DNA of 64,000 nt from positions 1,922,001 to 1,986,000 of the forward strand of contig ML978121.1 in NCBI GenBank assembly GCA_010015805.1, written 5' to 3'. Each line of letters starts with the position of its first letter. The stretch's first letter is position 1. Below are positions 3,539 through 41,608 of this stretch, in pieces. This DNA comes from Rhizodiscina lignyota (Eukaryota). Made by a program: the position numbers and the translations under genes. The notes beneath the pieces are model-generated. The model was not told the DNA's origin and did no database searches. It saw only the letters and a list, made by a program, of their open reading frames with translations.

Positions 3539-4248
3539 AAAATTTCAAAATCGCGCTTTTTTTCAATTGTTCCGTGACATTGCTCTCCAGCTACCTTACC
3601 TGTCCTGTGTCATGTGCCCGCCCATTTTGACTGCGGAGGAGGTAAGTTAGTTCTTGGCAACCTTGAAATTTACGCGGAATTGAAGTTTTCCCACACCCAC
3701 CATTGGAGAGCTGCTCACTTCGTGTTTACTTTCTTCGCTCTTTTACCCTTTGCCAATACTTGAGATAAAGTAGAACACAAAATCCTGAGGAATCCGCGCT
3801 GGCTGCTTTTAATCGAGCAGTTTCACGCGTATCTACCAACACGATCCTCAGGACCCGCCTACGCCGCTCAATTACCTTCTCGCTCTGCTGGCAGAATAAT
3901 AAGTTTCAACAGGCGTGCTTCTGGAATTCGTCCCAGCGTACGGTTTCCAAGATCACGAACCAGCGCCCCGCTCATACGCCCGATCCTCGACGCGCATCGA
4001 ACACTGAGTCACAGAGCCAGTTCATTTCGCTCAACCCAGAGTCCCCACTCTCCTCGAATCCTAATGATCACTTGAAAAAACTCTCTCTCAGTCCAACCCT
4101 CAGAGCCTCCAGGTTCTCCAAGTCCTCATCCCGTCAGCGAAGCTTCATCCTCTTCCCAAAGCCATGGGATGCATCTTTCTCACGAAGTCTCAGGAATTTC
4201 ACAAGGATAGGCGGAAGGCTTAGGGCACCGATTGCCTGGAATCGAGCA

Positions 4249-7200
4249 ATGCTCTCGCACATACAGTTTATCAGCACGCCGACGGCTGACACGCCCGGTA
4301 CGACGCTTCTCCTTTGGTTCGATAACAAGCGGTACTTGGTTGGCAATGTCGCCGAGGGCGCGCAGCGTGCTCTCACCCAGATGGGTGCGAAGATGGTGAA
4401 GACTTCAGAGATATTCATCACGGGAAGAACGGAATGGTCGAATGTGGGCGGTCTGTTGGGCATGATCTTGACCTTGGCAGATTCAATCGTTTCTGCTGCG
4501 GAATGGGTCAACGAGACGACGAGAGCGAAGAAGGCAAGAAAGGGCCAGGTGCTCACGAAAGAGGAAGAGGTGAAGCCTGTGATGAAGATTTTTGGACCAC
4601 CTAATATCACACATATGCTGGCAACGGCGAGGCGATTCATCTTCCGGAAAGGACTACCGATGTTGCCCTTTGAAATCCGAGATGAGGAACCCAAGCGCGA
4701 TGCACAAGGAGTGTGGAAGCCTACATGGGAAGACGAGAATATCAAAGTCTGGGCATTAGCAATCAAACCGGAAGCGTCAGCCCAGGACGTAACAGGTACC
4801 GGATCCAGTTCGCCGTCTGGTAGAAAGCGTAGCATCCATGAAGTCTACGGCGATGATGGTGGTACGAGCACTCCTGAGACTGAAGCCGAACGAGAAGAGA
4901 GATACAGTCAGCTACGCCATGGGGTGGTTCACTCAATGTTTAATTCAGACTGGCAACTCGATCAGCTCATCGAGCAACCGCTATCGGAGGTCAAGCTGCC
5001 AGCTACATTGTTCGTCCGCAATCACGAGACGAGACAGTTTGAAGAGTATACTGGACCACTTCCTGGCGGTGATGAAACTGTGCCGGAGGATATCAAAGTC
5101 TGGGCACGGAAGCCATGGCCCGGCGCCTTGATCCGCTCATTACCACCAACCAAACCAGCGCCGGAAGCGATATCGTATGTCTTTTGCAATCACTACCAGA
5201 GAGGTAAATTCAAACCGAAAGTGGCCACGGAACTTGGAGTGAAACAGGGGCAGATTAGAGCCTTAATCGGCGGCCAAGCGGTACAGAATTCCAAAGGCGA
5301 AACTATCACTCCCGATATGGTCCTCGAACCTGGGAAAGTAGGAGGCGGTGTGGCCGTTGTTGACCTGCCCTCGGAGGAGTACATTGCACCGTTGATCCAA
5401 CGCTCCGAATGGAAGTCGCCCGATGTCATGACCGGTGTAGGCGGATTCATTTGGATCCTTGCGCCGGGGCTGGCATCAAATCCTACTCTTCAAAATTTCA
5501 TGCGAGAGATGGGTCATCTAAATCACATCATATCCTCAAAGGACTGTTGTCCCAACGAACTAGCAATGACCTCCGCCGCAGCAGCTCAAATGAGGCTAAA
5601 CCAAGTTGATCCTTCTCGGTATCCCCTTCCTCTGTACGACAACAAAGAGCCACAACTGGCTGATGAGAGAGTGGAAGCTACAACGATAGAGCTGCCTGCA
5701 TGTGCCCAAATTGCGCACCGTGGGCAGAGCATCCGTCTGAACCCCGATTTCAGGATTTCCAAAGAAGTCACTCAACCCGTTGAGCTCGCTCCTGTGGACA
5801 AGATGCAGGTCTCTGACGCGACCCTTCAGCTAGCAAAAGAGGCATATGAGAACATTGAGGTTGACCAGGAGAGCCTTTCGGCATGGAGGTCAAAATTACC
5901 GAGTCCTGATGCCGAAGTCATTACGTTGGGGACGGGCTCAGCATTACCTTCAAAATACCGTAATGTTTCTGCGACCCTCGTTCGAGTTCCTGGATACGGT
6001 TCCTACCTCTTGGATGCTGGCGAGAATACACTCGGCCAGCTCAAACGACTCTACTCTCCGAGCGAACTTCATGAGGTCCTCAAAGACCTCCGAATGATAT
6101 GGATAAGCCATCTCCACGCCGACCATCATTTAGGCACTACAACCGTCATCAAGGCTTGGTACAATGCTAATTACCCAGACTTGCAACGAAAACCAGGCAA
6201 AGTAGACATGACGCCTGGCTTGGATTTCAATCCGGATCAGCTCACATCTGTGCGCCGACTAGCTGTTGTTTCCGACACAGGCATGCTCGACTGGCTTGCT
6301 GAGTACAGTCAAGTAGAAGATTTCGGATACAGCCATATCGCGCCGCTGTACATCTCTTCCGTCGTCATGGGCAGGGAGAATTCTAAGTTGCATTGGGCGC
6401 CATCTCTTGCCACACTGGGGTCTCTCTCAAAAATCCCTTCCTCCATTTATCCCGCATTACTGGGCCTGAAAGACATCCAAGCAGTCAGCGTCAACCATTG
6501 TCATGGTGCCAAAGCTGTTGCGTTGACGTTTGCGAATGATTTCAAAGTTAGCTATTCAGGTGACTGCCGACCGAGCAATTCGTTCGCAGCGATTGGTAGA
6601 GGTACAACAGTGTTGATCCATGAAGCTACTTTCGATGATCTGTTAGCGGGCGAGGCTCGAGCAAAACAGCACTCTACTACGAGTGAAGCGCTGGGTATCG
6701 CAGCGGCGATGAGGGCGAAGGCTTGCGTTCTGACTCATTTCAGTCAGAGATATCAGAAGATTCCTGTCATGGAAACAATAGACCCCGGTAGTGAGGCAGA
6801 CGAGGACATTGACCTGGAGCATGTGGTTCCAAGTGCGGGAGAAGGTGGACCTGAAACGGGAGAGAAGGCCATCAATGCTGATGAGGATGCGGAGATTGAG
6901 GAAATGATGATGGATGTCGAAGGAGACTTTTCGGAGTCGAGATATGCTCGCCGAAAGAAGCGTAGTTCGAAACCTCGTCCCGACGAAGAATCGCTAAAGG
7001 CTCTTAACGCCAACGCGCCGGAAAACTCAGACGCTGCAGTGCCAAGCGATGAAGGAATGGCTGGAGAAAGGAAGATCAAAGTCATGGCGAGGGACTTGAA
7101 GGTTTGCGTCGCCTTCGACCACATGAGAGTTAAAGTCGGCGACATTGCTGCACTGGAGAAGTTTACTCCCGCGTTGGTGAAGCTCTTTGAGGAGGCGGAC

Positions 7201-7431
7201 AAGGAAGAGAAACCGGAGGGCACTGAGGACGGCAAGGGGGAAGACGGGCAGGCAGAGAAGGAGCCAAAGCAGAAGAAAGGAAAAGAGAAGAAGAAGGAAA
7301 AGAAAGTGGACGCTCCCGCGCAGAACAGCCCTGCAAAGTCGAAAGGCGACAAGATGGAAGTGGAAGGTCCTCAGCCACCGCCGCAGTCTGAGCCGGCCAA
7401 CGAGCAGCAACAGGAAGAAGCAAAGGAATGA
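4249..7431 (+). CDS. TRZ1: tRNase Z long form (ELAC2/Trz1), intronless; possible upstream non-AUG extension from 3799
   Basis: N-terminal TPTADTPGT, LGTGSALPSKYRNVS, metallo-beta-lactamase SHLHADHHLG, YSGDCRP, HEATF and LTHFSQRY. First in-frame ATG at 4249. Confidence 0.95.
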   Translation: MLSHIQFISTPTADTPGTTLLLWFDNKRYLVGNVAEGAQRALTQMGAKMVKTSEIFITGRTEWSNVGGLLGMILTLADSIVSAAEWVNETTRAKKARKGQVLTKEEEVKPVMKIFGPPNITHMLATARRFIFRKGLPMLPFEIRDEEPKRDAQGVWKPTWEDENIKVWALAIKPEASAQDVTGTGSSSPSGRKRSIHEVYGDDGGTSTPETEAEREERYSQLRHGVVHSMFNSDWQLDQLIEQPLSEVKLPATLFVRNHETRQFEEYTGPLPGGDETVPEDIKVWARKPWPGALIRSLPPTKPAPEAISYVFCNHYQRGKFKPKVATELGVKQGQIRALIGGQAVQNSKGETITPDMVLEPGKVGGGVAVVDLPSEEYIAPLIQRSEWKSPDVMTGVGGFIWILAPGLASNPTLQNFMREMGHLNHIISSKDCCPNELAMTSAAAAQMRLNQVDPSRYPLPLYDNKEPQLADERVEATTIELPACAQIAHRGQSIRLNPDFRISKEVTQPVELAPVDKMQVSDATLQLAKEAYENIEVDQESLSAWRSKLPSPDAEVITLGTGSALPSKYRNVSATLVRVPGYGSYLLDAGENTLGQLKRLYSPSELHEVLKDLRMIWISHLHADHHLGTTTVIKAWYNANYPDLQRKPGKVDMTPGLDFNPDQLTSVRRLAVVSDTGMLDWLAEYSQVEDFGYSHIAPLYISSVVMGRENSKLHWAPSLATLGSLSKIPSSIYPALLGLKDIQAVSVNHCHGAKAVALTFANDFKVSYSGDCRPSNSFAAIGRGTTVLIHEATFDDLLAGEARAKQHSTTSEALGIAAAMRAKACVLTHFSQRYQKIPVMETIDPGSEADEDIDLEHVVPSAGEGGPETGEKAINADEDAEIEEMMMDVEGDFSESRYARRKKRSSKPRPDEESLKALNANAPENSDAAVPSDEGMAGERKIKVMARDLKVCVAFDHMRVKVGDIAALEKFTPALVKLFEEADKEEKPEGTEDGKGEDGQAEKEPKQKKGKEKKKEKKVDAPAQNSPAKSKGDKMEVEGPQPPPQSEPANEQQQEEAKE

Positions 7432-7838: not shown

Positions 7839-8370
7839 TCCATTTTGGTTGGCGCGTCCGCTTACCAGCCTTCCGGGTTCTTTCTCCAACCCCTCGCCTT
7901 TCTTCTTTCTTCTTTCACCACATCTGCCTGCGTCATCGGTGGGTCGACCACCAAAAGAGTCCCGAGTCTTTGACGCTGATAAGTCATTCTTCGTCAATTT
8001 CAGAATATCTCACACAACAATTCGGACACCGGTACCTCCTCCAAGCAGGAGTAATCAACACGCGCTGCCGCGGGACCGGCCTATTGACGCGAAGATTCGA
8101 ACAAGATAAAGCGAGATTCGTGGCTAGCTTCATTGTCGTCTTGATTGGAGTAGCCTGGAGCAGGTCCGGAGAGTACAGCTGTAGAAGCTATTCACACGCT
8201 GTACACCAATAACACCTCGGAAGAGGACCGAAGTCACGGAATCCTTCACGCATCGCAACACCTTCTAGTTTGCGAAGAATTGTCAAGTCCCACGGGACTT
8301 TTGTCACTCGATCAACTTTCTTTGAAGCGTTCAAGCGATACCTGCGACCACGAACTCTCCTTGAACCGCA

Positions 8371-9234
8371 ATGCCATCCGCCACCATGGCTCAGCATCGT
8401 AACAAGCGCCTCTTCCAACCTTCTATCACATCTTTCTTCGCTCATGCGGAACGAAATGGCGGAGATTTGATAGATTCATCGCAGTCCGAACAAAAGATGC
8501 CCGTCCTCCCGCCAAATGTGCAAGCAAACCTTTTGAACGTGGGCATGCGCATTCGGAAGTCAGTACCAGCAGGATATAAGAACAAGGCAGCTGACGACAT
8601 AGAGGAGGAGCGAAGGACGTTATACAACGCGCCCGTCGCTACAAGCTACAGACCAGCCGAGCTTCAACCTTTCTGTGGCATACATAAGATCGGCGGATTA
8701 GCGGCGCAGTCGGAAACGTATCAGGACATGAATATGAGCACTGATCCGGCTCTTCCAGTGGATGCACAGGCCCTGCTACCTCCGTCATCTTTCAACTCTG
8801 CTTTTAGTTCACTCTCGCAAGAGTCCTCCGTATCTACGTTATCAACCGATTCCATGCCCGCAGTGACCCCTCAATCAGCTCCCCTTTCAACGATCAATGC
8901 AAACACCAGATCACAAAAGCGACGATTTGAAGAGGACAACGACGAAAGGGAGCAGGACTGGGATGAGCGGATGGCATCGTTCGCGCCTCTTGAGCCTCCA
9001 ATCTCGCCAAGGACGCAATATCCCGTCAAGCACACATCAATGCCGAATTTCGCTGTCCTCACATCTCCTACGCTGGCAGCACGGACATACGCGCATCCGA
9101 CATCACGAGCCCGACGAAAGGACGCCAATAATCACTCTTACGTGGAGCTGGGTATGGCGGACGGTAATTTTGACTTCGAAGAAGCCGACTTCTTAAAGCC
9201 CCTGGAGGCTGATGAGATGGACATTGAGACTTAA
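8371..9234 (+). CDS. Ribonucleotide reductase inhibitor family protein (Spd1/Dif1-like) with N-terminal PIP box
   Basis: HUG-type motif QANLLNVGMRIRKSVPAGYK; QPSITSFF PIP-box pattern; acidic C-terminal DFEEADFL. Confidence 0.85.
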   Translation: MPSATMAQHRNKRLFQPSITSFFAHAERNGGDLIDSSQSEQKMPVLPPNVQANLLNVGMRIRKSVPAGYKNKAADDIEEERRTLYNAPVATSYRPAELQPFCGIHKIGGLAAQSETYQDMNMSTDPALPVDAQALLPPSSFNSAFSSLSQESSVSTLSTDSMPAVTPQSAPLSTINANTRSQKRRFEEDNDEREQDWDERMASFAPLEPPISPRTQYPVKHTSMPNFAVLTSPTLAARTYAHPTSRARRKDANNHSYVELGMADGNFDFEEADFLKPLEADEMDIET

Positions 9235-9668: not shown

Positions 9669-10930
9669 ATGTCGGCGTCCTTACCGGGCAGCCGTGAGCT
9701 GCCCACCTCCCAGTATAACCTCTCCACATACTGGGGACGAGTGCGTCACTCCACAGACATATCAGATCCCAGGTGAGAAAGCAAAATAACATGAATTGAA
9801 TAACCTTTGGCCTCCCAGCGTGGTGAGTTACCGCGGTTACGGAGTTTGTCTTTTGCAATTGGTCATTTCCCGTATCTTTAAAGCTTGGGCTAATTGGAAT
9901 CTCAAACAGGACTCTGTTAACATCTTCGGCCGGCCTCGAACATGCGAAGCAATTGGTAACATCATATAAACGGGGTGAAACTCGAGACATGAGTCCAGAG
10001 CTATGGCAGGCGAAGAAGATAGTAGACTCCACGTTACATCCTGGTACGTTATACCCGAGCTATTCTTCGAATAGTCCTTTCTCACAGTTTGGTACAGATA
10101 CTGGAGAACCGGTGTTGCTGCCATTTCGCATGTCATGCTTCGTTATATCGAACCTGGTAGTCACAGCTGGCATGTTGACGCCTGGTCTTGGGGTAAGGAA
10201 CTCTGAGTCGTTATTTCTCCTTCTCGGTGTTCACTGACACATTCACCAGACCTGGGGAACTCTGGGATGGCAAATAACGAACCAATCCCTCAACGTTGCC
10301 ATAAACAGCGCGAATGCGAACAAATCTACTCCCCTATCAAACGCTACGCTTGTAAAATCCTACCTCCTCGCCGTCAGTGCCTCCTGCTCCGTCGCCCTTG
10401 GCCTCAACGCTGTCGTGCCCCGACTCAAACGCCTTTCGCCTACCGCACGAACTACACTCTCTCGCTTAGTTCCGTTTGCAGCTGTTGCAAGCGCGGGTGC
10501 TCTGAACGTCTTTCTCATGCGTGGGGAGGAGATACGGCGGGGCATAGACGTCTTTCCCGTGCTGTCAGAAGAAGAGAAGCAGCAGAAAGAGAAAGACGGC
10601 AGTGAGGTGCAGAGCCTGGGCAAGAGTAAAGTGGCCGCTAAGCTGGCGGTCGGCGAGACTGCGCTCAGTCGTGTGATCAACGCGACTCCTATCATGGTGA
10701 TACCGCCATTGATCCTGGTGAGACTGCAGAGGACGGAGTGGTTGAAGCAAAGGCCAAGAATGGTACTACCAATTAATTTGGGGCTCATTCTTACCACGTC
10801 AATATTTGCGTTGCCGTTGGCGCTTGCAGTCTTTCCTCAGCGACAGGCGGTGAAGGCGAGCAGTTTGGAGGCACAGTTTCATCATAAAGGTGGTGAAAAC
10901 GGGATGGTTGAGTTCAACAGAGGAATATGA
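9669..10930 (+). CDS. Sideroflexin (mitochondrial carrier, Fsf1 family), 4 exons
   Basis: YNLSTYWGRVRH..DPRTLL, AKKIVDSTLHPDTGEPVLLPFRMS, NQSLNVAINSANANKS, LAVFPQ and C-terminal FNRGI. Introns at about 9773-9909, 10044-10097 and 10193-10249. Confidence 0.93.
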
Positions 10931-11436
10931 GGTCACGATACATGAGAAATGATACCATCAAGAGGGCTAATATGGCAGAAGCACATAGACGGAGGGTTGC
11001 GCAATATGATGATTCGCAAATACCTGTACAGCTCACATTATCGCCGCATACATAGTACATTTGATAAATCACAGAGCGACTGTGCTTTCCAAGCGATGAA
11101 ACCCGTTGTCGTACAGACTAATCTGCGCCTTGACCAAAATGTAACAGATGGCCCTAGGAAAATGTGATGGCACATGCATAAGGTTGGTCCCGCGGGTTTG
11201 GATGCCCAGTGCAGGCAGCTCGCACGTGATGGCCTTCCGGGCGGCGATTCAAACCTGGAAGCTCCGAGCCCCGCGTCTGGCAGCGTAAGCTCCTTTCCAC
11301 CACGTACTCAAGGCGGAAGTGCAGCGCAAGCAACGTAACTGCAAGAAGGCGCTTCGACGACTCTGCTTGTCAAGCCTTTCGCCTCCCCTTCCAAAATCAT
11401 CCAACTGAGCTGCTTGAACTCGAACAGGTGGCCAAA

Positions 11437-14400
11437 ATGGCAGGAGTTGAGTTCATCCCCAGCCAAATCTTCCTTACAGCCTCGTCGAGCCTGGATAAAT
11501 ATCCTGGTAAGCAAGTTGAACATCGAGAAGCTTCCTCTTGTGGATCTGACTACTCGAAGCCAAGCAGCATGCTCAAAATGTGGCCCGGAAACTTGGAGCA
11601 AACAATGGGTTGCTTTATCTTCCCGGCCAGGGGAAGGTGTTCCGCGAAGACAGTGATATGGAGGTGCCGTTCAGGCAGAGGCGATACTTTTACTACCTGA
11701 GCGGGTTGGTGATGCTCCATTTCTCTGATAAGAAATTTTTCTAATAAGATTTAACAGTGTCGATGAGCCCGACTGCCATCTCACTTACGACATTAGGCGT
11801 GATGTGTTGACGTTGTTCATTCCGCCGATCAATCCGGAACGCGTCATTTGGAGTGGCCGTGGATCCACGGTCGATGAAGCTTACGATAAGTACGATGTCG
11901 ACAGAGTGCAATTGTCAGACGCCGTTTCAGAGACAGTCGCAAAATGGACAAAGAAAAACATTGGAACCGTCTACATCCTCCATCCCACTCAAGAGGCCTT
12001 TCCCGGACAGAACAAACTGCCACGAGTGGACTTTACTAGACTGCAAATGGCCATAGACCACTGCCGAGTCATCAAGGACCCGCATGAGATAAAGCTCATC
12101 CGTAAGGCGAATGAGATCTCAGCGGATGCTCACCGCACGATATTAACAAACGTGCGTGGGCTCACAAACGAGGCTCAAGTTGAGGGCATCTTCAAAGACA
12201 TGTGCATAAGCAAAGGCGCCAAACACCAAGCCTACGCGCCGATTTGTGGGTCCGGTGAAAACGCAGCGACTCTTCACTATGTCAAAAATGACGAGCCTTT
12301 GGAGGGACGCCAGTTGATGGTGCTTGACGCAGGTGCTGAATGGGAACTCTATGCTTCGGACGTCACACGCACGTTTCCACTACACGGCGAGTGGTCCGAA
12401 GAGGCTCAAGCAACTTACAGCCTTGTGCAATCCATGCAGGAAGCTTGCATTAAGAAAATAAAGCCAGGCGTACGTTTCTTGGATATCCACGCCTTAGCTC
12501 ACCAGATCGCCGTAACCGGTCTCCTTGAGCTCGGAATACTGCACGGTGGCAATGCCAAGGAGATTCTTGAAGCCGGCACTTCGCTCGCTTTCTTTCCGCA
12601 TGGACTTGGGCATCACCTAGGCCTCGAAACGCACGATGTCTCCGATACGCCCATCAATAGTGTGTGGACATACCAAGACCCAACCTGTGAGAAGGTCAGA
12701 TCTGGCCTCGTTACTGAGCTTTGCAAGGCTCCTGTTGATGCAAGGAGCGGCGGCCTCGAAGAAGGAATGGTTGTCACTGTTGAGCCTGGAATGTAGGCTT
12801 TATCTTTCCGCTCCGCCTGTTATAGACACCAGAAACTGACTTGTCATAGCTATTTCTCGCGCTTTGCAATACAGCAATTTTTGCAGTCACCAGAGCATTC
12901 GAAGTATATCAACAAGGAAGAAGTCGAAAAGTATTATTCCGTTGGAGGCGTCCGTATTGAGGATAACATTCTGGTATGTAATTGATCCAAATTGTTTTTC
13001 AAGCTGTATCTCACTCAGATACAGGTGACTGCCGGTGGATATGAGAATTTGACGACCGCTCCAAAAGGCGAGGAGATGATGAGGATGATCCGTGCCAGCT
13101 CCTCGACGCCTGAACAGAAGAAAGCTGATGGCGGACTCATCTGGGCACAAATGCAACGCGCCAGCGATTGTAAACTGGATGAGAGGAAAGAAATTTCTCG
13201 CCACGAGGCGCCGCTCGCTGAAGTAGGCCCGTCATCCTCGGATCTTTCCAAGTCACAGGATCCACATAAAGCATGCTCGTTCTGCAGGACGAGAAAACTC
13301 AAATGCTTCCGATACTCCACAAGGAGCGACAAATGCTCCAATTGCACGAGGTACGTGCTGGAATGTAGTCTGGCGACGTCTCAACCCGTTACGGAAACTC
13401 GTACAATTTCGGATCGGCCACGCAAATCCTGCCAGTCTTGCCGCAAGAGAATGGTCAAATGTAGAGGCTTCTTAGACGACAGAGGAAAGTGTGACCACTG
13501 CGCTCGACTCGATCAAAAGTGTAGCCTGGCCGAACAACGAAACATTGCCGCGGAAATTGCAATGGTGGAACTGACGAAGACGTTGTCAGTGTTAGATGCT
13601 TTTGCGTCTATGAAGCCTCTTTCCCAAGCAGATCACGGCATTGCAAAGGATATCAAAAGCGCCCCGCCTGTACCCCCCAAGAGCTCTAGAGAGGAGAGTC
13701 TGATTACGCCCGTCGCAGAGCTGAGCATTGGGAGCTCGAGAGCTCGGACTATTTCAGTCCCAGAGGCGACCAAAACATCGCCCAAATTGTACAAACATGG
13801 TCTTCCATTGACCTTACCCCAGGGAGGCCCTCCGGAATGGGGCCTTGTTGAAACAAAGTCCGCCAACTCCAAAAGCCTGGCACAGCTGCGACAGCAATAT
13901 TACATTCTGGCCTCGAAAGAGACAGCATTTAATCATACCCGTGATGATAGTGTGGATCGAGATGTGATCGCTCCTCAAGTACCGAAGAAAATTCCTGAGC
14001 TACCACAAAAGCCTCTTGCGTATCGTCACAGCCTGCCAGCATTGTCGGAGGCAGCAGCTTCGCACCGAATTTCGTACACTGGTTCTGTTGTGGATCCAAT
14101 TACCGAAGCGGATACCTGGTTCAAAGCGGACCACAGTACAAGCCGTGACTCTCCATGGGACTTTAGGGAGCTTTTGCACTTCGACAACATTCCGAAGCCA
14201 ACCCACTCAAACGGCCTTCGCCGTGCTCAGACAACGCGGACGCCTACTAGGTCGAAGCCTTTGGAATCTTTTGGATCACGAAGTCCAAAGGAGTCTGAGT
14301 CCTTTGAAATTACGATCCGCATCGCTGCAGTTGCCGCGACCTATGTGAATTCCATTCCTCAGAATAGAGGAAAGGACATCAATGGGGATGAGATTCGCCG

Positions 14401-14782
14401 TATCCTCGAAGCCAATCCAACGCTGAGCGACCTCTGCCGCATGCTGCGGGTGATGGGAGTAGTGGTACATGAAGACACCTTTGCCGAAACTCTTGTCAAG
14501 TCAATCCCTGACCTCAACCTACTCGGACTTGCCAAACCAGCCTCGGAGGTGAATCGTCTAAAGAGGACAATGAACCCAACAAGGTACAGGCCACGACGAC
14601 CTCATACCTATGTTCAACCGCGCATTACTGAAACCCCTTCACTGTCATCGCTAAACCTAGGCGATGGGGACGGTTTGCGCGATGCCGGATCACAGTTGAG
14701 TTACCCTGGTCTGACTGGCACGCACGAATGGGTTGAAAAGAGATTGTCGAGGCTAATGAGTGATGAATTTCTTTACAAATGA
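11437..14782 (+). CDS. Xaa-Pro aminopeptidase/prolidase (M24B) fused to two Zn(II)2Cys6 clusters and a long C-terminal tail
   Basis: [57 protein letters not shown] and [12 protein letters not shown]. After intron 12974-13024 the frame stays open to 14782 and contains two C-x2-C-x6-C-x9-C-x2-C-x6-C motifs. Confidence 0.85.
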
Positions 14783-16633
14783 TGCTAGGTATAAGCTGGG
14801 TCGTCGGAGAAATCCTGTGTCAATCTCCTTAGAGCATTCGGTAGGATTTATTCGCGGTAACATCACGGCTCTGACATGCAACGTCTAAACTTTGCTGCCG
14901 GCCCCGCACGGTCGACGACATCTTGTCCTCTGGCGGTGACCTGCATAGCTATGGTGTTTACTACTGCATACTTTCGAAATAAAACCCCGGTATTAGGTAC
15001 CTCGACTGTCTCGACTTTTTATCTCTTCACTTTTGTGCATGTGTTTTATATGGTCATTCCATCCAGCCCCAGTGACTGACTAGCTTTCTATGATGAATGA
15101 TCAAGACAGATACGGATGTCTGCCCGATCCTCTGATCACTTCGGCCCGTAGAAGACGTTCAGGAACACAAGCTGTCCTTGGCCATTGATGACAATTCCTC
15201 GAGGAGGCTTTTGGCTCTCCGAAATTGAAAATGGCACATGTCCACCTTCCGCATCCGGACAGAAGACCCTGTGTAACCTCGCGTGAGGTCTCACTGCGCA
15301 GTAAGTGTCTGCTACACTCCAACCGCCAGCCGCCTGCTCATTGCATCGTGTTCATGTTTCTTACTGCGCGCAGTATGCTCTATGTTTTATTCTCTCTATT
15401 TTTGGAGAAGTCCTCGAGATGTCGGGCCCACTTTCTGTCCAGTTTGTACTCGTGCGTCGCCGACGCAAAACTCAAAGTCGGGGGGCCCGCTCCATACCGT
15501 CTGGCTTCCTATCTTACATTCTCGAAAAATCTTCTCTCTGCTGCTGTGGATAGAATCAATAAGCAGTAGGAGAAGAGGGGGAAAACCTTTTCAGCGCTTT
15601 TAAATCGAATTGATTGGACGCTTTTACGTTATCTTCGATCAATCTACTCCGGAAAGAGTATACCTGCCCCACAGCCCCGCTACGCTACACCCCATTAAGC
15701 TAGTTGGAGCAATTTTCGCTTTTCGATCGTATTTTTGCTCTATGTTTAGGTAAGTGCTTAGCATTCCAGTGGTATCCTATGGCTTGTGTATTGAAACTAT
15801 TGATTCTTCCCGCAGCCGCAGGGGGTATGGATCTCCGGGCTATTCCGTTTGCGGAAGCTATTTACAGGCCCCGTATGCCCTCCGAATTCATGACGTACGA
15901 GGATGGCTAGAGCGTACTGAGCGCAGAGTAAGGTTCTAACTGGACGAGCAAATCGGGATAATATTTTTTATGCTATCCTCGCGTAGGCATTCCTTTCCGC
16001 ATGCAGGCCCCAGCAATGTTACTGCGATGTTTTTCTAAGTGACTGGGATGTCGCTGTCTTCACAAGGAGCATCCCATCTATTCATGCGCGGTGCCTGCTT
16101 TAGCTATGCGCTAGCCATGCTCTTCTGCAGGACCGCTGAAAGCGTGGTTCGCTAAACTCAGTCGCTAGCGCAGCTTAGCGCACCATCAACCAACATCATT
16201 CCTATCGTGACTATCGACGCCGGTTGCATCGTCGCATATTCACGCGATTAGAATCAACTCGTCGCTTCAAGGCTTGGTCTATTGCCAAGCCAAGGCTTAG
16301 ATGCATTCTCTGTCGTCCGCAGAGCGTGGTGATCCCAATTTCTGCCGAGACCGAACATCAACCATAGGAGCGGCTGAGAGGCCTGTTCACGTTTGCGGGA
16401 ATACATCATGACTGTGGAGTGGAATGCGCCGGACGGTAGCATGTATATTTAGCCTTCTTTGTCCACTGTCTCTCGTCTACTTTTTCGCTTTGCAGATGAA
16501 AGCTTGAAGTTGCACAGCTGTCCGACCTCTGTCTTTCTCATCCAACCTCGTCAACCACCGAGTAGATCGATCACTTTCTACTTCCTGCCCTTCGCTCTGC
16601 ACCAATCTAAACTCTCGTTTTACTACTGTCGCA

Positions 16634-17431
16634 ATGGTGTATCGTCCTTTCGCCCTTGTGGCTTTGGCCGCCTTTGTCGCCGCGCAGAGTCCGCAATTTG
16701 GGGGACCTGCAGGAGGGCCGCCCGACCAGGCTCCGTCGTCCAGGAGCTATGGCTATCCTCCACCACCTCCACCATCCAGTATGCCTGTGTCGACTCTTCC
16801 ACCTCCTCCGCCATACTCCGAGTCGTCTGCCCCGCCGCCATACACAACTCCACCTACTTCAAGCAGCTATTGGCCACCACCGAGCTCTTACACAACTTAT
16901 AAGACGACGTACGAGACGACAACCACTATTCCTTGCACGACGAATAGCAGCTGGGTTCCACCCACAGTCAAAAAGACAACCGTAGAGACTACGGTGACTA
17001 TTCCTTGCACAACGAGTAGCACTTGGATTCCGCCGCCGCCGCCGCCTTATCCATCCAAGAATGTAACAAACACGACAATCACGACGCCATGCCCAACCAC
17101 CACAACTCCAGCGCCTCCTCCGCCTGCTTCAACCACGGCTTCGCCTGTCGTCCCACCTCACTCTTCCGAATTGACGACGACAATTGAGACCACCATCCCT
17201 AAAACGCGTACTGCAACCATCGAAACTTCGGAAGTGGTTCCCGTACCGCCAGAGAGCACAGTAACGCCTTCTACTACCATCCTACCTACTGTCACTACCT
17301 CAGCGGCAGCTGCAACCGAGACTACTCCGGAGACTCCTCTGTTTACCGGCGCGGCTGCAGCGATCCCAAGGATTGGTGGTGAGGCTGTGGCGCTACTCGC
17401 AGCTGTTGCAGGCGTAGTTGCGCTTGCTTGA
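16634..17431 (+). CDS. Secreted Pro/Thr-rich GPI-anchored cell-wall protein
   Basis: Signal peptide MVYRPFALVALAAFVAA|Q; P/S/T-rich body with TTIPCTT repeats; C-terminal FTGAAA plus hydrophobic tail. Confidence 0.85.
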   Translation: MVYRPFALVALAAFVAAQSPQFGGPAGGPPDQAPSSRSYGYPPPPPPSSMPVSTLPPPPPYSESSAPPPYTTPPTSSSYWPPPSSYTTYKTTYETTTTIPCTTNSSWVPPTVKKTTVETTVTIPCTTSSTWIPPPPPPYPSKNVTNTTITTPCPTTTTPAPPPPASTTASPVVPPHSSELTTTIETTIPKTRTATIETSEVVPVPPESTVTPSTTILPTVTTSAAAATETTPETPLFTGAAAAIPRIGGEAVALLAAVAGVVALA

Positions 17432-18607
17432 ATGCATTGATGACATATCATATGCATTCGTGGAGCTGGTACTGTCACAATCCTTACATCTCTAATTGAC
17501 AAACATATTATGTGCTTCTGTGGTTTATCTCACCACTATCGGATAGTTAGTTTCTAATGACCGCAGGGCTGGGCATGGCATCTGTGTGCAACGACGATCC
17601 TTACGAATGGCATGTTCATGTGACAGTATCAAGCATTGGGTCTTGGAGATGCAGGGGAATACCTGGAAAGGAGTATAGTGGAAAGCGGGAACATGTCTCT
17701 TGCAGAAGATATCATTTGGAATGTCAATGAAAGATCAATGCATTACCGTTCCTACGCCTTCATTATTGACCTGTGATGCTCGAGTGGACGCTTGCGGCGA
17801 TCTTGCTGACCCGCAAGCGTAAAACTTGGAGATAAGGTGCTCGCGTCTCCAAATGCATTGAAACGCACGAGCTTCTGCTGAAGTCGTTGACAGTGAGTAC
17901 AGAGAAGCTGGACAGGGACAGGCTCGAGGTTCTTTGACGGTTGCGGTTAAAATTCTTCACGGCACTGCGGCAAAACTCCGGGCCGACTCCTTGACACGCC
18001 AAGATCATTTCCGCTCCTCAGACGCCAGGAACGCCAGGGACGCTCACATCGCGTCTCATCTTCGAGGGGTTGGAAAATCGATGAACAAGACGTCTGAAAC
18101 TTCAACTGCCGCTCAAGCTTATCGAATAAGGCACGGAACTTCATCCAATTTGTCTCGTCTGCCCAAAAGGACGGGTGGCTTGTGCGAACCTGCTGTAAGT
18201 GGAGCACGGAAGCCTTGCTCTCTAAACACTAGTGAGACTGCTTCCTAAGTAGACGCGCTGTGGGCTCCGTCACTCTCAATTTCATGCTTCGCAGATTCAT
18301 AATAATTTGTTTCCTCGGAATCTGCTTCCCGCTGAGTTGTTTGTTTCTCATGTTTTCTTTCATTCGTCGTATTGCCCATCGACCTGTTTTACAGACCAAC
18401 AAAATTACATCGGCTGCGTGTTCTCCCCACACACAGTCGCAAATTTTCTAGATGTTCTTCGCAGCGGTTTACATCTTAGTTTCTCAATGAGGACACATTG
18501 CAACCAAGCCCTATTGACCTGCAAGAAGGCATGAAGCCTTTCCAGAGAAGCTTGATGAAGGACGACATCACGACGACGCGTCAGTGAGGAAAGGTATCTT
18601 TCCCGTC

Positions 18608-19820
18608 ATGCGTCATAGAGCGATGTCGATTACTGGTGTACGAAGACACCGACTCCTGATACTTTTATTGCCGGTGCTACTTCTCGTTGCTTTCCTTCTT
18701 CAGAGCGACTCGATCAACATACTCAAAATTTGGTCACCACGCTGTGCCACCACCACAGGATCAAATGGCGACGCCGTATCAAGAAACTCTAGTCCGCATC
18801 GCATATCAAAAGTCTCGATGCTGTTCGGCAAAAACGACCTCTACGAGCGTGCGCTGGAGACGCATCGGGAGCACAATGAGATGCATGGGTACGGGATGAA
18901 AGTCCTCCGCGAACAGCTTACCGATGGTTACTGGAACAAGCTGTTGTACATTCTCTCACTGCTGGTTGAAGAGCTTGCGAAGCCACCTACAAGACGGATA
19001 GAATGGTTCATGTAAGACCTTGTCTTTTCTGCCACTACAAAGAGCGATTGTAACTGAGTCTCAGTATTACAGGTGGGTCGATGCGCATGTCGTCCTTCTG
19101 AACCCTCAAATACCACTCGATATCTTCTTACCCGTACAAGACAACAACTTTCGCGAAACGCATTTCATTGGAACACGAAACGATGGCGATTTCGTACCCA
19201 GCGTCTTTTTCATCCACGTGCACCCATGGTCAATCAAGTTGCTCGTCAAGGCGATGGCCGTGCCGATGATCGATGAACTCGCGGAGCTTGGAAGTGCCAT
19301 GGATCGGAGGGCACTTTCATATATCCTAGACGAGACTGAGTTCCGAGACTCTGTCATTTATCAGCCGTGGCATTGGTTCCACGAGTCATTTTCCTCAAAT
19401 GCGAAAGAGGGTTCAGACAGAAGGGGTACCCTTTTGGCACAGTTTCCTTCAAATCTGAAGGCAGCACGGTGGAAGCAGCTGGCCGACTGCCTAGACCGTC
19501 TACATCGAATAGAGGAGAACACGGCTATTCCATTCGAAGACACGTTCTATTTGGAAGAGACGGAAAGATTTTGGGAGCTTGCGCGAGACGTCAATTTCAT
19601 GTTACTGGTTACAAAACAGCTGCAAAAAGGCTTGACAGAATGGAACGAGGATATTGCTGCGGCTTCATCACGGCTTGAAGACGTTTTGAGCTACGACCTC
19701 GATCAGAAACAACAAGCTATGGAAGCGATTGAAGACGTGAAAAAACTCGTATCCACAATACAGGTACCGCAGAGACCTGTAAAAGAAGTGGATAAGGGGG
19801 AGTGGATTGAACCTCCATGA
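18608..19820 (+). CDS. Glycosyltransferase family 34 (Mnn10/Gma12-like) type II membrane protein, catalytic motifs degenerate
   Basis: N-terminal TM; YERALETH..HGY..WNK..EELAKP..IEWFM|WVDAH..LNPQIPLDIFLP; intron 19012-19072. Confidence 0.8.
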
Positions 19821-23798: not shown

Positions 23799-26284
23799 AT
23801 GGGGAAACGAAAGCTTGGAGCGCTTGAAAAGGTCGAGGCCGACCTGTACGACTCCATTATCCACCTATATCGTATGCAAGAGCTTCGCTAATGAAACATC
23901 AGAGCCAACCTCCAGCACAAAATTCGGCGAGATCCTCCGTATGGCTTCCTTGCATTGCGATTGAGGTTATATGGAACTGACATTGTTTCTAGTTCCTATA
24001 AGGACGATTTCGATAGACAGTATGAGCAATATGCCGCCTTCTACGCCATCCTCGCGCAGGAGCCATCGTCCGTCGACGACTCTGGGATCGTCTCAGTTCG
24101 CGAACTGATCGACTTCATCGCACACGTTGCCGACTGCTATCCCACGCAGACCAAGGACTTCCCGAATGACCTTATATCATTGCTTGAGGCTCACCATGAG
24201 GACCTTGAGCCTGAGCTGCGGGAAAAGGTTGTGGTTAGCCTGGTGCTGATGAGGAACAAAGACATAATCGATTCCCCAACGTATGCTGTTCACCTGTGGA
24301 AGCATTGGCGGTGACAATTACTGACTCTGGACAGGCTTCTAAATACGCTTTTCCCCATCCTAGTTTCCACTTCCAGCAAGTCTCTACGTACACTCCTGTA
24401 TCAGAAAGTCCTCTCTGACCTCCGCTCGTCGAATGCTAAATCTACCAACCACCGTCTCAACCGCACCATGCAAACCGTCCTCTTCAACCTACTTACTTCT
24501 GACCGAACGTCTTCCAAAGGTCTCTGGGCTGTGAAGATAACTCGCGAGCTTTGGAAGCGTCAAATATGGACAGATGCGAAAGCTGTCGAGATAATGAAGG
24601 AGGCCGCTCTTGCCGAGAACGAGAAAATTATAAGCGGCGGAGTAAGATTCTTCTTGGGGGGCGACAAGGAGCGTGAGGAAGCAGCGGAAGGGAGCAGCGA
24701 TGAGGAAGATGAAATCGACATGGACAAGCTGCGGCACCAGGCAGGAATTAACAAGAAAAGCGGGAAGCGAGACAAGGAATTGAAGAAGGCGGCGGCAACA
24801 GCGAAGAAGAAGGATAAGAAGAAGAATGCGCCGCATCCCTTGAACTTTTCGGCTCTACATCTGCTTCATGACCCGCAAGGGTTTGCGGAATCGCTCTTTT
24901 CGCGGCACTTGCAGAATGCGAAATCGAAGCTCAATTTAGAGCAGAAACTGCTTGTCCTCCAGCTCGTTTCGAGGCTGGTCGGGCTTCATCAACTGACAAT
25001 CACCAGCTTGTACTCTTATTTCCTCAAGTAAGTGACAGTGTTCGTTTCGTGACAATTTGGATTGAGTTTAATATGTACAGATACCTCACACCACGCCAGC
25101 CTTCGGTAACAACATTCCTCGCATGCCTAGCGCAAGCCACACATACTTTTGTCCCGCCGGATACCCTTCAGCCACTCGTCCAAAAGATTGCGAATGAATT
25201 TGTCTCCGAAGCTGCTGCAGCCGAGGTCGCTTCTGCAGGACTGAACGCAATTCGAGAGATTTGCGCCAGACAACCGCTTGCTATGGACGAGACACTCCTG
25301 CAGGATTTAGTTATGTACCGAAAGAGTAAGGACAAAGGCGTTGTCATGGCGGCAAGAGGTCTCTTGAGTCTCTATCGAAATGTTGGAGCGGAAATGCTGC
25401 ACCGAAGAGATAGAGGCAAGGAAGCTGCACTAGGACTGAGGGATGGGACAGCGGGCTCGGCAAGATTCGGCGAAATCCAGGTCGGTCAGATCGAGGGCAT
25501 CGAGCTGCTCGAGGCGTGGAAGGAGGAGGAAAGGAGAAGGAAGCGAGAAGAGAAAGGCTTAGGGAGCGATGAAGACGATGTTGAGGGAGAAGAAGAGGAT
25601 GAGGAGACAGGTTGGAAGAACTGGGACGTTGAAGAGGATGACAGTGATGATTCAGGTGGCTGGATCGATGTTGAAAGTGATGGTGAAGACATAGAGATTT
25701 CGGATGATGAAGATGACAAGCCACCAGCGAAAAAGGCGAAGCTTGATCAGGCAGACGGAAAAGACGACAACTCCGAAAACAAAGATCCTGCGGCAGCGGC
25801 AGAGGAGATGGAGGCGAAGATATCCAAGCTCGCAACGACAAAAATCCTCACCCCAGCAGACTTTGCCAAACTTCAAGAGCTCCGGACGAATGCCAACATC
25901 ACATCTTCGCTTTCTTCTGGGCGAAAGACGCAACGGCAGAAGTCGCAAGTAATAGCAGAAGGACGCCACCATGAAGATCCGCTTACCGCTGCTGAAATTG
26001 AAGGCCTTGCTTCTCTCTCTCATAAAGCGACCAAGGCTGAAAAGATCGCTGCGGCAAAGGGAGACAGGGATGAGAAGCATCAAAGCACAACAGCAAGGCG
26101 GAAGGAGAAGAAGCGGTCTGAAGGGAAGAGCAGCACGAATAAGGAGAAAGAACGCCAGAAGAACTTCCTTATGACGCTGGGAAAGGCGAAGCGGAAGGGG
26201 AAGAGGAGTCTGGGAGATGTCCGGAAGGCTTTGAGAGGGCATGTCGAGAGAGGGAAGAGGGGTGGAAAGAGAGGGAACCGATGA
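23799..26284 (+). CDS. SDA1: SDA1 ribosome biogenesis protein
   Basis: NLQHKIRRDP..SY, FSALHLLHDPQGFAE, KIANEFV, KILTPADF and SSTNKEKERQKNFLM. Confidence 0.95.
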
Positions 26285-26667
26285 GTGGTGTTCAATAGCA
26301 TTAGAAGATACTTGATGCACGATTATCTACGAAAGACACGTCCAGTCGTCCGCGCTCAGTGAAACATTTGATGTTGTATTTTTGCATGTGGAATTGGGGC
26401 GGTGGTGGCTCATGGGAATAGGAGAAGGAGATAAGGCACCCTACCAGCACGCGCTAGCGGCCCACGTGAAATGGGTCCGTTTTGCCGCGAGGCTCAAGAG
26501 CGCGCCTTAGCGTCGGTTACGCCCTCCGGTATATTCCTTTGCTCCGTCAACATTTCTTCCCAGCTCCCGGCAAACGTCTCCATTAACCTCCAATTCCTCT
26601 TCCAACTTCTCCTCTCCGCCTCCAAAACCCCCTCTCCACTCCATCCACCACCCACCGCACATTCCAG

Positions 26668-27830
26668 ATGGCTGCGACAGCTCCTCCCAGCTCCACCGGC
26701 TCGGTGAAGCTCGACGCCCTGAAACAGACCGTCCAGGCCAGCGACCCGGCAAAGCTGAGCGGTGTCGCTCTCTACTCGCGCTTCGCCTTTGCCGGCGCTG
26801 TCTGCTGTGCTGTCACGCACGGCGCTCTCACACCCGTCGATGTGTAAGTCTGCTCCCCTTCGGAATGGCTCTTTAGAGCTCCTCCAAAACTTTTTTTTCT
26901 CCCAGACCCTGGATACCCGCGAGGACAAAGGGACAAGAAGCTGACACGATGCAAACCGCAGCGTCAAGACGAGAATACAGCTCGACCCCGTCACCTACAA
27001 CAGCGGCATGATCGGCAGCTTCCGCAAGGTCATCGCGAACGAGGGCGCCGGCGCGCTGCTGACGGGTATCGGCCCTACCTTCGCGGGCTACTTCCTCCAG
27101 GGCGCGTTCAAGTTCGGTGGCTACGAGTTCTTCAAGCAGCAGAGCATCAACCTGCTCGGCTATGAGACCGCGTCGAACAACCGCACCGCCGTCTACCTCG
27201 CCTCGTCCGCGTGCGCGGAGTTCTTCGCCGACATTGCCCTCTGCCCGCTCGAGGCCACTCGTATCCGTCTCGTGTCCGAGCCTACTTTCGCAAACGGTCT
27301 GATCGGTGGTTTCTCGAAGATCGCGAAGACTGAGGGCCTTGGCGCTTTCTACTCTGGCTTCGGGCCCATCCTGTTCAAGCAGTAAGCAGGCCCCGGAACA
27401 CTCTCCAAATAAGCATCTCGACGACCGGCTAACGTCGCAAAACAGGGTCCCATACACCATGGCCAAGTTCGTCGTGTACGAGAAGGTCTCCGAGCAGATC
27501 TACCGCATGACGCCCAAGTCGGAGATGTCGGACGGCATGGTCACCGTCACCAACCTGGGCTCCGGTCTGATCGCCGGTTTCGCCGCCGCCATCGTCTCGC
27601 AGCCGGCCGACACGATGCTCTCGAAGATCAACAAGACCAAGGGCCTGCCCGGAGAGAGCACCACCAGCCGCCTGATCAAGATCGCCGGCGAGCTCGGCTT
27701 CCGCGGCTCGTACGCCGGCATTGGCGCGCGTCTGTTCATGGTGGGCACGCTTACCGCTGGCCAGTTCGCCATCTACGGCGACATCAAGAGGGTGCTTGGT
27801 GCCACCGGCGGTGTTGAGATTGGCAAGTAA
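26668..27830 (+). CDS. MIR1: Mitochondrial phosphate carrier, 3 exons
   Basis: [52 protein letters not shown] and [10 protein letters not shown]; strong GC3 bias. Confidence 0.92.
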
Positions 27831-28730
27831 ACGGATATCCTAGACGAGCGGGGTGGGGTATAGTCGAGGATAGACGCATGCCAGAGGGCATTAGACGATT
27901 AGACTAAAAGTTGGGCCTTTCTGTCGATTTTTTGCGTAGAGTGTCGATAGATCAGATCTCTCTGCTCCGGTTTGCGACACTTTTCTTCACGTTTCTCGCT
28001 AGCGAGTAGACGATAATCAGGATCGTTACGTCTGCTCTGGGGAGGGCTTCATGGGCATTTCTGGTGTATAATTACTTTTACTCCCTTTTTTTCCGGGTTA
28101 GCTTGAAACATAGAGGTCTGACTCTGCTATCTTGAAGTCTTGAGAATAACTACTTGACATTACAGCGTGTCCCGAAATCGGTGTCCGGTTTGCGCACACT
28201 TTTCACTTAATGTCTCTTGTACACCCTGACTATAAGGGTACGCGGTCTTTTAAGCCTTGACCTTGCAAAGCTCATTGACCGCAATGACCTTAATCTCTCC
28301 GTTAAACTCCTTCACGCTTAATGTCGCCGATGCGACAAGTGATCTCTTCAGCCTGTTTCGTGGTGTCAGTCAAGGACAGGTGCTATTGCCACCTTCGGTA
28401 GACCCTCCAGCGATCTTCTTTCGGCTCGTCTTGAAAGCTCCAGTCAAGATACTGGAGGATTCTTTCTTCAGCTGCAGTACTATGACCTAGTTCTGGAGAC
28501 GGTATCCCATAAATCTATTTAACTATTTCTGAGCACCCTACTCACTGGTCGTCGTCCGGGCGGGGTGCATGCGTTCAGCTGCCACGTACACTTAGCTGCG
28601 GCCGCTGCAACGATGCGTCCGTATCACTGTACAGTAGTTCCCGAAGGCCGTCGTTCACTTGTGTCGTGCTATATAGCAAGTCGATAGCAAGCCTTTTCAT
28701 CGCAGAAATAGCGTAGTCGGGCTCTCCGCC

Positions 28731-31958: not shown

Positions 31959-32181
31959 GTTTCGTGACCTGCTACCTCCTCACTGTGCAGCTATTTTATG
32001 CGTTGATAAAACTTCCCCATGCCCCTAATATAGTACACAATCCAAAACATAACTATCCCTCATATTTCATAACATATCGCGTCCCATAACCATACGCCGC
32101 TGGACCCCGGACACCATGCTGCACAAATGTCATCGTGAAACCGAACATGCCATCTACATTATCCCGTGAAACCCTAGATCC

Positions 32182-41353: not shown

Positions 41354-41608
41354 AGTGTCTTGTATATAACGGTGTTCTTTCTGGGGCTATGGTCTGGTGT
41401 GGCTCATTTGACATCTGAATTTGGCTTGTGGTTGGCCTCCATTGCGGCATGGTTTGAGCGCGCAATTGCATTTGCATGTTGCATTTCAGAAGCGTATTCT
41501 TCGTGTACGCATAGAAGGGGTTCGAGCATTCTCGGATGGCTGTTGGAGCGGTTTCATTTCCTGCAATTCTATGGCATGCAATGTCAATATTGATCTGGTC
41601 TCTGCCTT

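Follow-up and report, generated by a model that had tools for sequence, protein, structure and literature searches.

The window analysed here is a stretch of 64,000 nucleotides of Rhizodiscina lignyota contig ML978121.1 (assembly GCA_010015805.1, positions 1,922,001 to 1,986,000), in which positions 11437-14782 of the forward strand are occupied by a single gene of five exons, encoding 1043 aa in the spliced model. The coding sequence of 3132 nt contains one stop codon only, the terminal TGA, and all four introns are short (53, 53, 57, and 51 nt) with GT..AG boundaries. Exon 1 (11437..11506, +) starts with the ATG at 11437 and encodes MAGVEFIPS...DKYP; its splicing restores the sequence ..KYPAKQHAQ.., which is the same in the homologues P0078, P0082, and P0094. 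The AMP_N region begins in exon 2 (11560..11704, +), flanked on each side by a 53-nt GT..AG intron, and continues into exon 3 (11758..12792, +), which also carries most of the Peptidase_M24 domain with the LDAG, SDVT, HGLGH, and VEPG motifs, while exon 4 (12850..12973, +) completes the M24 fold and contributes RIED. Exon 5 (13025..14782, +) encodes the final 23 aa of the prolidase, followed by a tail of 562 aa and the TGA (14780-14782). The product is composed of a prolidase of the M24B type (residues 1-481) and an in-frame tail (residues 482-1043).

When exon 3 was scanned alone, Peptidase_M24 scored 162.5 bits (Pfam cutoff 23) and AMP_N 48.5 bits (cutoff 24.6, profile positions 48-117). All five metal-ligand motifs listed in the preliminary description of this locus were located in the spliced protein, at residues 261 (LDAG), 272 (SDVT), 353 (HGLGH), 413 (VEPG), and 452 (RIED), followed by a YENLT motif at residue 464; we take the Asp, Asp, His, Glu, and Glu of these motifs to be the metal ligands. 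The two Asp motifs and the His motif are identical in an alignment to human prolidase (5mc5_A, E 2.2e-50), and the two Glu motifs match their counterparts in P0082 and P0094. The enzyme is probably a catalytically active Xaa-Pro dipeptidase.

The usual C-terminus of the prolidase, 23 residues encoded at 13025..13093 (+), is not followed by a stop, and beyond ..EEMMRMIR a further 562 codons remain open, in agreement with the continuation of about 560 aa described previously. Each of the five remaining frames is interrupted by 15-30 stops over this stretch, and shuffling of the tail stretch produced no open version in 2000 attempts (mean 25 stops). Synonymous codon choice in the tail correlates with that of the prolidase exon (r = 0.75). 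A Logan contig built independently from one public run (word depth 157) showed 0 differences over 11400-14900, and neither a candidate extra intron satisfying the short-intron criteria in 13060-13300 nor a stop in the prolidase frame before 14780 was detected. As that run is possibly the window's own source sample, the match is a check on the assembler and not on the biology. A look-up of public runs carrying this stretch yielded one run and no identified RNA sample.

Similar tails are found behind prolidases of many other fungi. We sampled homologues of 610-2000 aa only, which gave 168 matches, and examined 120 of them, with the RIED motif present in 116. At least 130 aa follow this motif in 100 of the 116, 80-129 aa in three, and 28-53 aa in the remaining 13, which we regard as ordinary prolidases; these annotated relatives are computational gene models, liable to extend through any open frame. 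Tail lengths across the long-tailed relatives vary from 130 to 1300 aa, and the long relatives annotated as 'Xaa-Pro aminopeptidase' are 50-63% identical to the window protein over exon 3. Among the 120 matches examined, the long-tailed homologues with species names belong mostly to Dothideomycetes. Homology of the tail itself was detected by BLASTP in full-length annotated proteins of Coniosporium uncinatum (P0082, 3e-21) and Aulographum hederae (P0078, 1e-17).

In a FastTree phylogeny of the 120 homologues and the window protein, 96 of the 102 long-tailed rows fall into one group of 98 rows (support 85), the window protein is placed together with the Aulographum and Coniosporium uncinatum proteins (support 83), and the presence of the tail requires 8 changes, compared to 17.9 in shuffles. 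These comparisons indicate that the fusion is inherited and ancient, and that the long tail is a trait of a prolidase lineage residing mainly in Dothideomycetes. A weak, word-based search with tail residues 300-585 revealed no fused tail forms among proteins of 1025-2925 aa, and DNA of relatives was not found in two metagenome scans, one queried with an alignment and the other with P0008.

Two Zn2Cys6 clusters are located in the window tail, at 13274..13366 (+, residues 542-572) and 13430..13522 (+, residues 594-624), exactly where the preliminary description had placed them. Both show the C-x2-C-x6-C-x9-C-x2-C-x6-C spacing with a basic segment each, and both exceed the Zn_clus cutoff of 21 bits when scanned alone (28.2 bits for cluster 1 and 26.6 bits for cluster 2). 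Cluster 1 aligns to the DNA-binding domains of Lac9 (E 0.0035) and Gal4 (E 0.021), and its six Cys are invariant in four divergent tails (the window protein, P0003, P0082, and P0094). Cluster 2 is identical to cluster 1 at 11 of 31 aa and 47 of 93 nt, and an intact counterpart of it was not seen in P0003, P0082, or P0094. A 28-residue helix is predicted directly after cluster 2 (13526..13609, +; AF2 model) with a pLDDT of only 61-71 from an alignment of four sequences, and could possibly act as a dimerisation element.

Across the lineage, the six-Cys pattern is confined to a minority: it is present in 8 of the 100 long tails and missing from 92. Only the window clusters pass the Pfam cutoff, with P0082 (19.3 bits) and P0094 (16.4 bits) both falling below 21, and no Zn_clus match was obtained in six other tails scanned. 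Of the five closest relatives, three (P0005, P0006, and P0007) retain only a C-x2-C at the aligned place, in ORFs that may be cut at the 5' end. Two clusters occur only in the window protein and, at a different position, in P0178 among the relatives sampled. Judging from these alignments, what is conserved at the heart of the tail is not the clusters, and the window protein appears to have kept an ancestral cluster 1 and to carry a second cluster in addition.

The remainder of the tail is predicted by the models to be mostly disordered, with several conserved elements. Within the linker (13094..13273, +), a stretch of 12 residues is conserved between P0003 and the window protein. The P0003 ORF opens with the Met of MRTIR, which corresponds to MRMIR, and runs through a Zn cluster and a Myb domain to a C-terminal region shared with the window protein (44% identity over 77% of the query). 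Further downstream, a 23-residue linear motif (13982..14050, +) shows invariant P, K, P, Q, K, P, L, and Y columns in six sequences, and is also found in P0078, P0079, P0081, P0082, P0085, and P0008, the last of which joins the prolidase C-terminus to a tail containing a 10-residue stretch of this kind. It is this motif (a core of 15 residues), together with a four-helix module and a C-terminal helix, that is best conserved among close relatives. The C-terminal helix (14720..14779, +) contains invariant columns, and the model of the C-terminal region places helices at 251-262 and 265-269 with a pLDDT of 73-78.

The four-helix module (14285..14503, +), including a stretch of 53 residues, is modelled with high confidence (pLDDT 92-97) and was matched in ~66 other fungal proteins. 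A single C2H2 pattern lies near the C-terminus in 36 of these 66; one module protein is named 'C2H2-type domain-containing protein'. The module emerges as an unannotated element common to a widespread family of single-C2H2-finger proteins. In two MFS transporters (P0032 and P0033) it follows the transporter part, which means that a nuclear role for it is not a given. No Pfam family matched the module, and a Foldseek search retrieved no convincing PDB fold, the best hit being the Nab2 N-terminal domain at E 0.7. Resemblance to the cap domain of HAD hydrolases (VIA-align Z 6.7, rmsd 2.5 over 65 residues) was rejected, since the best Z was within the noise for helical bundles, and no fold family was assigned. 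No usable match for the last 270 aa of the tail was obtained in the ESM Atlas.

Tails of other members differ widely in content. The P0082 tail contains an SCA7 domain (60 bits), which, like the Myb domain of P0003, is a nuclear-type domain. Pleosporales tails (35 rows) have conserved blocks of their own and no clusters; one of these blocks, PL.RA.T.P, can be read as resembling PLAYRHSLP of the window protein.

We read the long-tailed prolidase as genuine, ancient, and undescribed. The explanation that best accommodates these observations, and which we hold to be somewhat more probable than not, is that of a 1043-aa prolidase with an inherited tail, whose clusters would serve for DNA tethering in those lineages where they are kept. 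From the N-terminal side, the tail comprises two Gal4-type clusters, a predicted helix, a conserved proline-rich motif, the four-helix module, and a C-terminal amphipathic helix. An enzyme dimer would carry two such tails, which would tether the prolidase to DNA, chromatin, or nuclear partners: the zinc clusters would provide sequence-specific DNA contact in lineages keeping them, and the motif, the module, and the C-terminal helix would provide conserved protein contacts. We infer a single transcript and a nuclear location for the 1043-aa product, and DNA binding by the tail is plausible from its sequence. The proposal of an enzyme joined to a transcription factor, made in the preliminary description, survives in part. 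It is favoured by the Pfam-grade clusters, the alignment to Lac9 and Gal4, and the occurrence of cluster 1 in four tails; against it stand the rarity of the pattern among the long tails and the lack of any Pfam match to the Fungal_trans (middle-homology) domain when the last exon (585 aa) was scanned down to an E threshold of 0.1.

The strongest competing explanation, which we consider doubtful, is that the fusion is real and the tail is a disordered regulatory or scaffolding arm whose conserved role is something other than DNA binding, with the clusters being a lineage-specific accessory or a relic. Such an arm could act in localisation, partner binding, and perhaps phospho-regulation via the ..R..S/T.P motif. 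This would fit well with the invariance of the motif, module, and C-terminal helix among the closest relatives, with the scarcity of clusters, with the module behind MFS transporters, and with the separate, cluster-free blocks of Pleosporales. However, it leaves unexplained why the window clusters should have perfect spacing, basic segments, and scores above the Pfam cutoff, why the Cys of cluster 1 should be invariant in four divergent tails, and why Myb, SCA7, or C2H2 elements should recur in other tails and module proteins.

A bolder form of the DNA-tethering explanation, which strikes us as unlikely, would see here an ancestral one-component regulator of Dothideomycetes, with the prolidase dimer both holding the Zn2Cys6 clusters together as a pair and sensing Xaa-Pro dipeptides or proline supply on their behalf, and with the ..R..S/T.P motif and the module gating nuclear access or the choice of partners. 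As part of the same unlikely proposal, lineages that lost the clusters would have kept the enzyme-scaffold half of the regulator.

Less probable still is the production of two proteins from one locus, an ordinary prolidase and a zinc-cluster protein started internally, making the 1043-aa product an artefact or minor isoform by way of a splice or polyadenylation event that went unrecognised. Three ATG codons are indeed present at ..EEMMRMIR, and gene callers began P0003 at this place. Nevertheless, the prolidase frame reaches 14780 with no stop and no candidate short intron in 13060-13300, 100 of the 116 relatives sampled likewise read on in frame from prolidase into tail, and P0003 itself shows in-frame conservation of the linker beside the prolidase end. 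Finally, a recent loss of a stop codon capturing a neighbouring gene, as entertained in the preliminary description, or a sequencing or assembly error joining neighbours in the window genome only, has nothing but the unusual architecture to recommend it and can be rejected as extremely improbable, because the fusion is inherited across relatives, with homologous tails on prolidases of many genera, and the independently built contig is identical.

Searches of the literature retrieved no published account of the long-tailed prolidase architecture and no mention of SNOG_02267. 'Prolidase' was absent from the listed matches on zinc clusters and C-terminal extensions, and matches concerning Trichoderma XYR1/CRE1 and fungal PARPs were judged irrelevant from their listing. 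This agrees with the earlier statement that no characterised example is known, yet more than 100 uncharacterised long-tailed homologues are present in public annotation. The lineage, for which no published name was found, is defined in the present analysis. Its long-tailed version is apparently class-wide, including major plant pathogens such as Alternaria, Pyrenophora, Parastagonospora, and Bipolaris, and in some members, that of the window included, intact clusters of the DNA-binding type follow an enzyme whose catalytic residues are all in place. Should the tail prove to guide the prolidase to DNA or chromatin, the protein would constitute a eukaryotic enzyme-regulator fusion tied to proline and peptide metabolism.

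With prolidases of the M24B type, such as human PEPD and fungal PepP-type enzymes, the window protein shares AMP_N, Peptidase_M24, VEPG, and RIED. Prolidases are regarded as stand-alone dimers, and the 13 ordinary ones sampled stop 28-53 aa past RIED, whereas the window protein adds 562 aa with domains of the DNA-binding type. Coniosporium uncinatum LTS18_006201, Aulographum hederae K402DRAFT_360242, the Alternaria tenuissima protein, and SNOG_02267 belong to the lineage of the window protein and likewise have long tails in frame; the KPLAYRHS motif and the helical module of the window protein recur in P0082 and P0078, and its cluster 1 in P0082 and P0094, while tail content varies greatly among the Dothideomycete proteins and most are without a zinc cluster. 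The window clusters have the six-Cys binuclear pattern and basic segment of Gal4, Lac9, and Put3 regulators, but differ in having a central loop of nine residues, compared to six in Gal4, and in being tandem, internal rather than N-terminal, placed behind an enzyme, and unaccompanied by a Fungal_trans middle-homology region. Bacterial PutA is a precedent for DNA binding by an enzyme of the proline pathway, in this case via a ribbon-helix-helix domain; the window protein is eukaryotic and has Zn2Cys6 clusters instead. The pita-bread (M24) fold is likewise at work in the nucleus in Ebp1/PA2G4 and in the N-terminal domain of Spt16, both of which have lost the metal ligands, whereas the window prolidase keeps all five.

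We conclude that a tail with two bona fide Zn2Cys6 clusters continues an intact prolidase in one uninterrupted reading frame. The gene, in fungal DNA of ~51% G+C with short introns, lies on the forward strand in five exons (11437–11506, 11560–11704, 11758–12792, 12850–12973 and 13025–14782), opening with the ATG at 11437 and closing with the TGA at 14780–14782. Its four introns of 53, 53, 57 and 51 nt are GT..AG in every case, and the spliced CDS of 3132 nt encodes 1043 aa, the sole stop being the terminal one. Exon 3 matches Peptidase_M24 (162.5 bits) and AMP_N (48.5 bits) in Pfam, as well as human prolidase chains (E 2.2e-50), to which ..LDaG.., ..SDvT.. and HGLGH are identical; VEPG lies at residue 413 and RIED at residue 452. 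All five prolidase motifs named in the preliminary description are present, and we infer that this part is an active enzyme. The run-on of ~560 aa reported there also holds: no stop follows the 18-letter prolidase ending, and the frame stays open for a further 562 codons, compared with 15–30 stops in each of the other five frames and none of 2000 shuffles left open. Upstream on the same strand lie a tRNase Z (Lactamase_B_4; 3769–7431), an RNR_inhib-domain protein (8365–9234) and a sideroflexin (10238–10930). The ORFs at 16508–17431 and 18518–19820 are without a Pfam match, and G+C reaches 0.58–0.60 at 26001–28000, 32001–34000 and 38001–42000 against the window average of ~0.51.

Judged by conservation, sequence constraint is clear in parts of the tail, and the tail is homologous within a sub-group of long-tailed prolidases. 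Five close relatives were retrieved with the last exon (E values from 1e-103 to 6e-38, 34–53% identity in the alignment), together with P0008, in which a 29-letter segment is joined to a long tail with a 10-letter motif. Invariant columns among the close relatives fall in a 15-letter block, a 34-letter block and ..SY..L.GTHEWVE.R...LM.D.FL. The closest relative of the tail, the ORF P0003, has the order conserved linker, single Zn cluster, Myb domain and a C-terminal region homologous to the window; its Myb-like DNA-binding domain occupies residues 157–206. Long tails across the wider family are otherwise highly variable, with P.KPLAY in 5 of 100 among the matches listed and an SH3 entry in the precomputed domain list for the tail of P0168. 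Between its Zn cluster and its KPLAYRHG motif, P0082 of Coniosporium uncinatum carries an SCA7 zinc-binding domain (residues 676–731, 60 bits), which we take to be a chromatin-associated domain (Sgf73/ataxin-7). Pleosporales tails (35 rows) have other conserved blocks, including ..C..C.iLvqtldRLR.nL and ..PL.RA.T.P..; the latter may resemble PLAYRHSLP, and may also be similar to a basophilic-kinase or 14-3-3 type site.

The sole confidently modelled part of the last 270 aa (AF2, 32-row alignment) is a bundle of four helices at residues ~106–180 (pLDDT 92–97), a module of ~70 aa at 14285–14503. A C-terminal helix follows at moderate confidence (pLDDT 73–78), and the remainder is apparently disordered. 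The tail profile matched 73 proteins at E ≤0.001 among 1.84 billion representatives, most of them over the module only, with the consensus LA.AAA.WLN..P.N.GK.I....I..LLD.NPSY.ELCE.LE..GF.L.R..FAR.LL.AVPDVN defining a widespread fungal protein family (P0012–P0077) that lacks a Pfam match. Among 30 module proteins scanned against Pfam, 23 had no family, four a sub-threshold Zap1_zf1 and two MFS_1; exactly one C2H2 pattern, ~100 aa from the C-terminus, occurs in 36 of 66, and one protein is named "C2H2-type domain-containing protein". Solved structures gave no convincing match to the fold, and an Atlas search with the last 270 aa gave no match. The module is an unannotated fungal domain, found mostly in proteins with a nucleic-acid-binding finger. 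In P0032 and P0033, ORFs from unnamed or metagenome records, it lies behind an MFS_1 transporter domain, either as another fusion or through merged gene calls.

We suggest that the protein is bifunctional, each prolidase dimer bearing two tails by which it would be anchored to DNA, to chromatin or to partners in the nucleus, with the clusters supplying the DNA contact in lineages retaining them. Taken whole, we hold this to be moderately probable; a nuclear or DNA-associated role is likewise inferred, and specific DNA binding by the tail is put forward only tentatively. The main rival, with scaffolding or regulation as the conserved role of the tail and the clusters as accessories, seems to us rather unlikely. 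The cluster region is not invariant among close relatives, the six-Cys pattern occurs in 8 of 100 long tails among the matches listed, and an intact cluster 2 was seen in the window only, in the sample examined. P0005, P0006 and P0007 have just C-x2-C there, in ORFs whose 5' ends may be missing; P0082 and P0094 (Delitschia) score below the Pfam Zn_clus cutoff, and six other relatives have no match. Cluster 1 is probably ancestral, because its six cysteines are invariant and similarly distant from the prolidase end in the window, P0003, P0082 and P0094. At the place of cluster 2, P0003 has similar residues (RK.MV, F..D) and no cysteines. In P0178 a different pair lies in tandem near the C-terminus.

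Returning to the bifunctional reading, a single mRNA and a single protein would be expected from this gene. The ORF of P0003 begins with MRTIR, matching MRMIR in the window. Separate products from one locus are improbable; no short-intron candidate was found in 13060–13300 under the search criteria applied. Synonymous codon choice correlates between tail and prolidase exon (r = 0.75). Motif and module stand behind a complete prolidase in two annotated, full-length proteins, P0082 of C. uncinatum (BLASTP 3e-21) and P0078 of Aulographum hederae (1e-17). Recent stop loss or error is scarcely credible: capture of a neighbouring gene, earlier proposed as one of two options, is effectively excluded by long tails in 100 of 116 RIED-bearing homologues among the matches listed, and a Logan contig from one public run (word depth 157), possibly the source sample, is identical to the window over 11400–14900, which speaks against assembler error only.

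Those homologues come from proteins of 610–2000 aa searched with the prolidase exon (168 matches, 120 listed) and are mostly "Xaa-Pro aminopeptidase" or hypothetical proteins in NCBI/UniRef, of 800–1300 aa, from Aulographum, Aplosporella, Glonium, Coniosporium, Lasiodiplodia, Alternaria, Pyrenophora, Bipolaris, Parastagonospora and many more genera. RIED is present in 116 of the 120 and is followed by at least 130 aa in 100, 80–129 aa in three and 28–53 aa in 13, the last being ordinary relatives. In a FastTree of prolidase domains, built from the window and all 120 homologues with every row kept, one 98-row group (support 85, not starred) holds 96 of 102 long-tailed rows, and the window groups with Aulographum and C. 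uncinatum (support 83). The tail label requires 8 changes, whereas shuffling the labels gives 17.9 and in none of 500 shuffles so low a number, on a tree from a single method with long-branch warnings and rows of at least 610 aa, in which ordinary-length clade members would be missed. Aulographum, C. uncinatum and Alternaria are Dothideomycetes, and Candelaria belongs to Candelariomycetes. Judged from these homologues and this tree, the fusion is old and the arrangement was inherited across a large fungal lineage; that it is real and inherited we consider very probable. The architecture already stands, unremarked, in public annotation, and full-text literature searches, judged by their listings, returned no published account of it. 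The novelty lies in a combination, conserved and undescribed, of an enzyme and a DNA-binding domain that are each known, together with an unannotated module.

The two clusters lie exactly where the preliminary description had placed them, at 13274–13366 and 13430–13522 (+), both with the spacing C-x2-C-x6-C-x9-C-x2-C-x6-C; scored by themselves they reach 28.2 and 26.6 bits, above the Pfam cutoff of 21 bits, and they are mutually identical at 11 of 31 residues. Modelling by AF2 on an alignment of 4 rows yields two short helices in each cluster (pLDDT ~70–74) and, directly after cluster 2, a 28-residue helix (pLDDT 61–71) that is at most suggestive of a Gal4-like dimerisation element; a Pfam scan of the last exon found no middle-homology domain. 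All six cysteines of cluster 1 align with those of Lac9 (E 0.0035) and of Gal4 (E 0.021), and its central loop is longer than in either.
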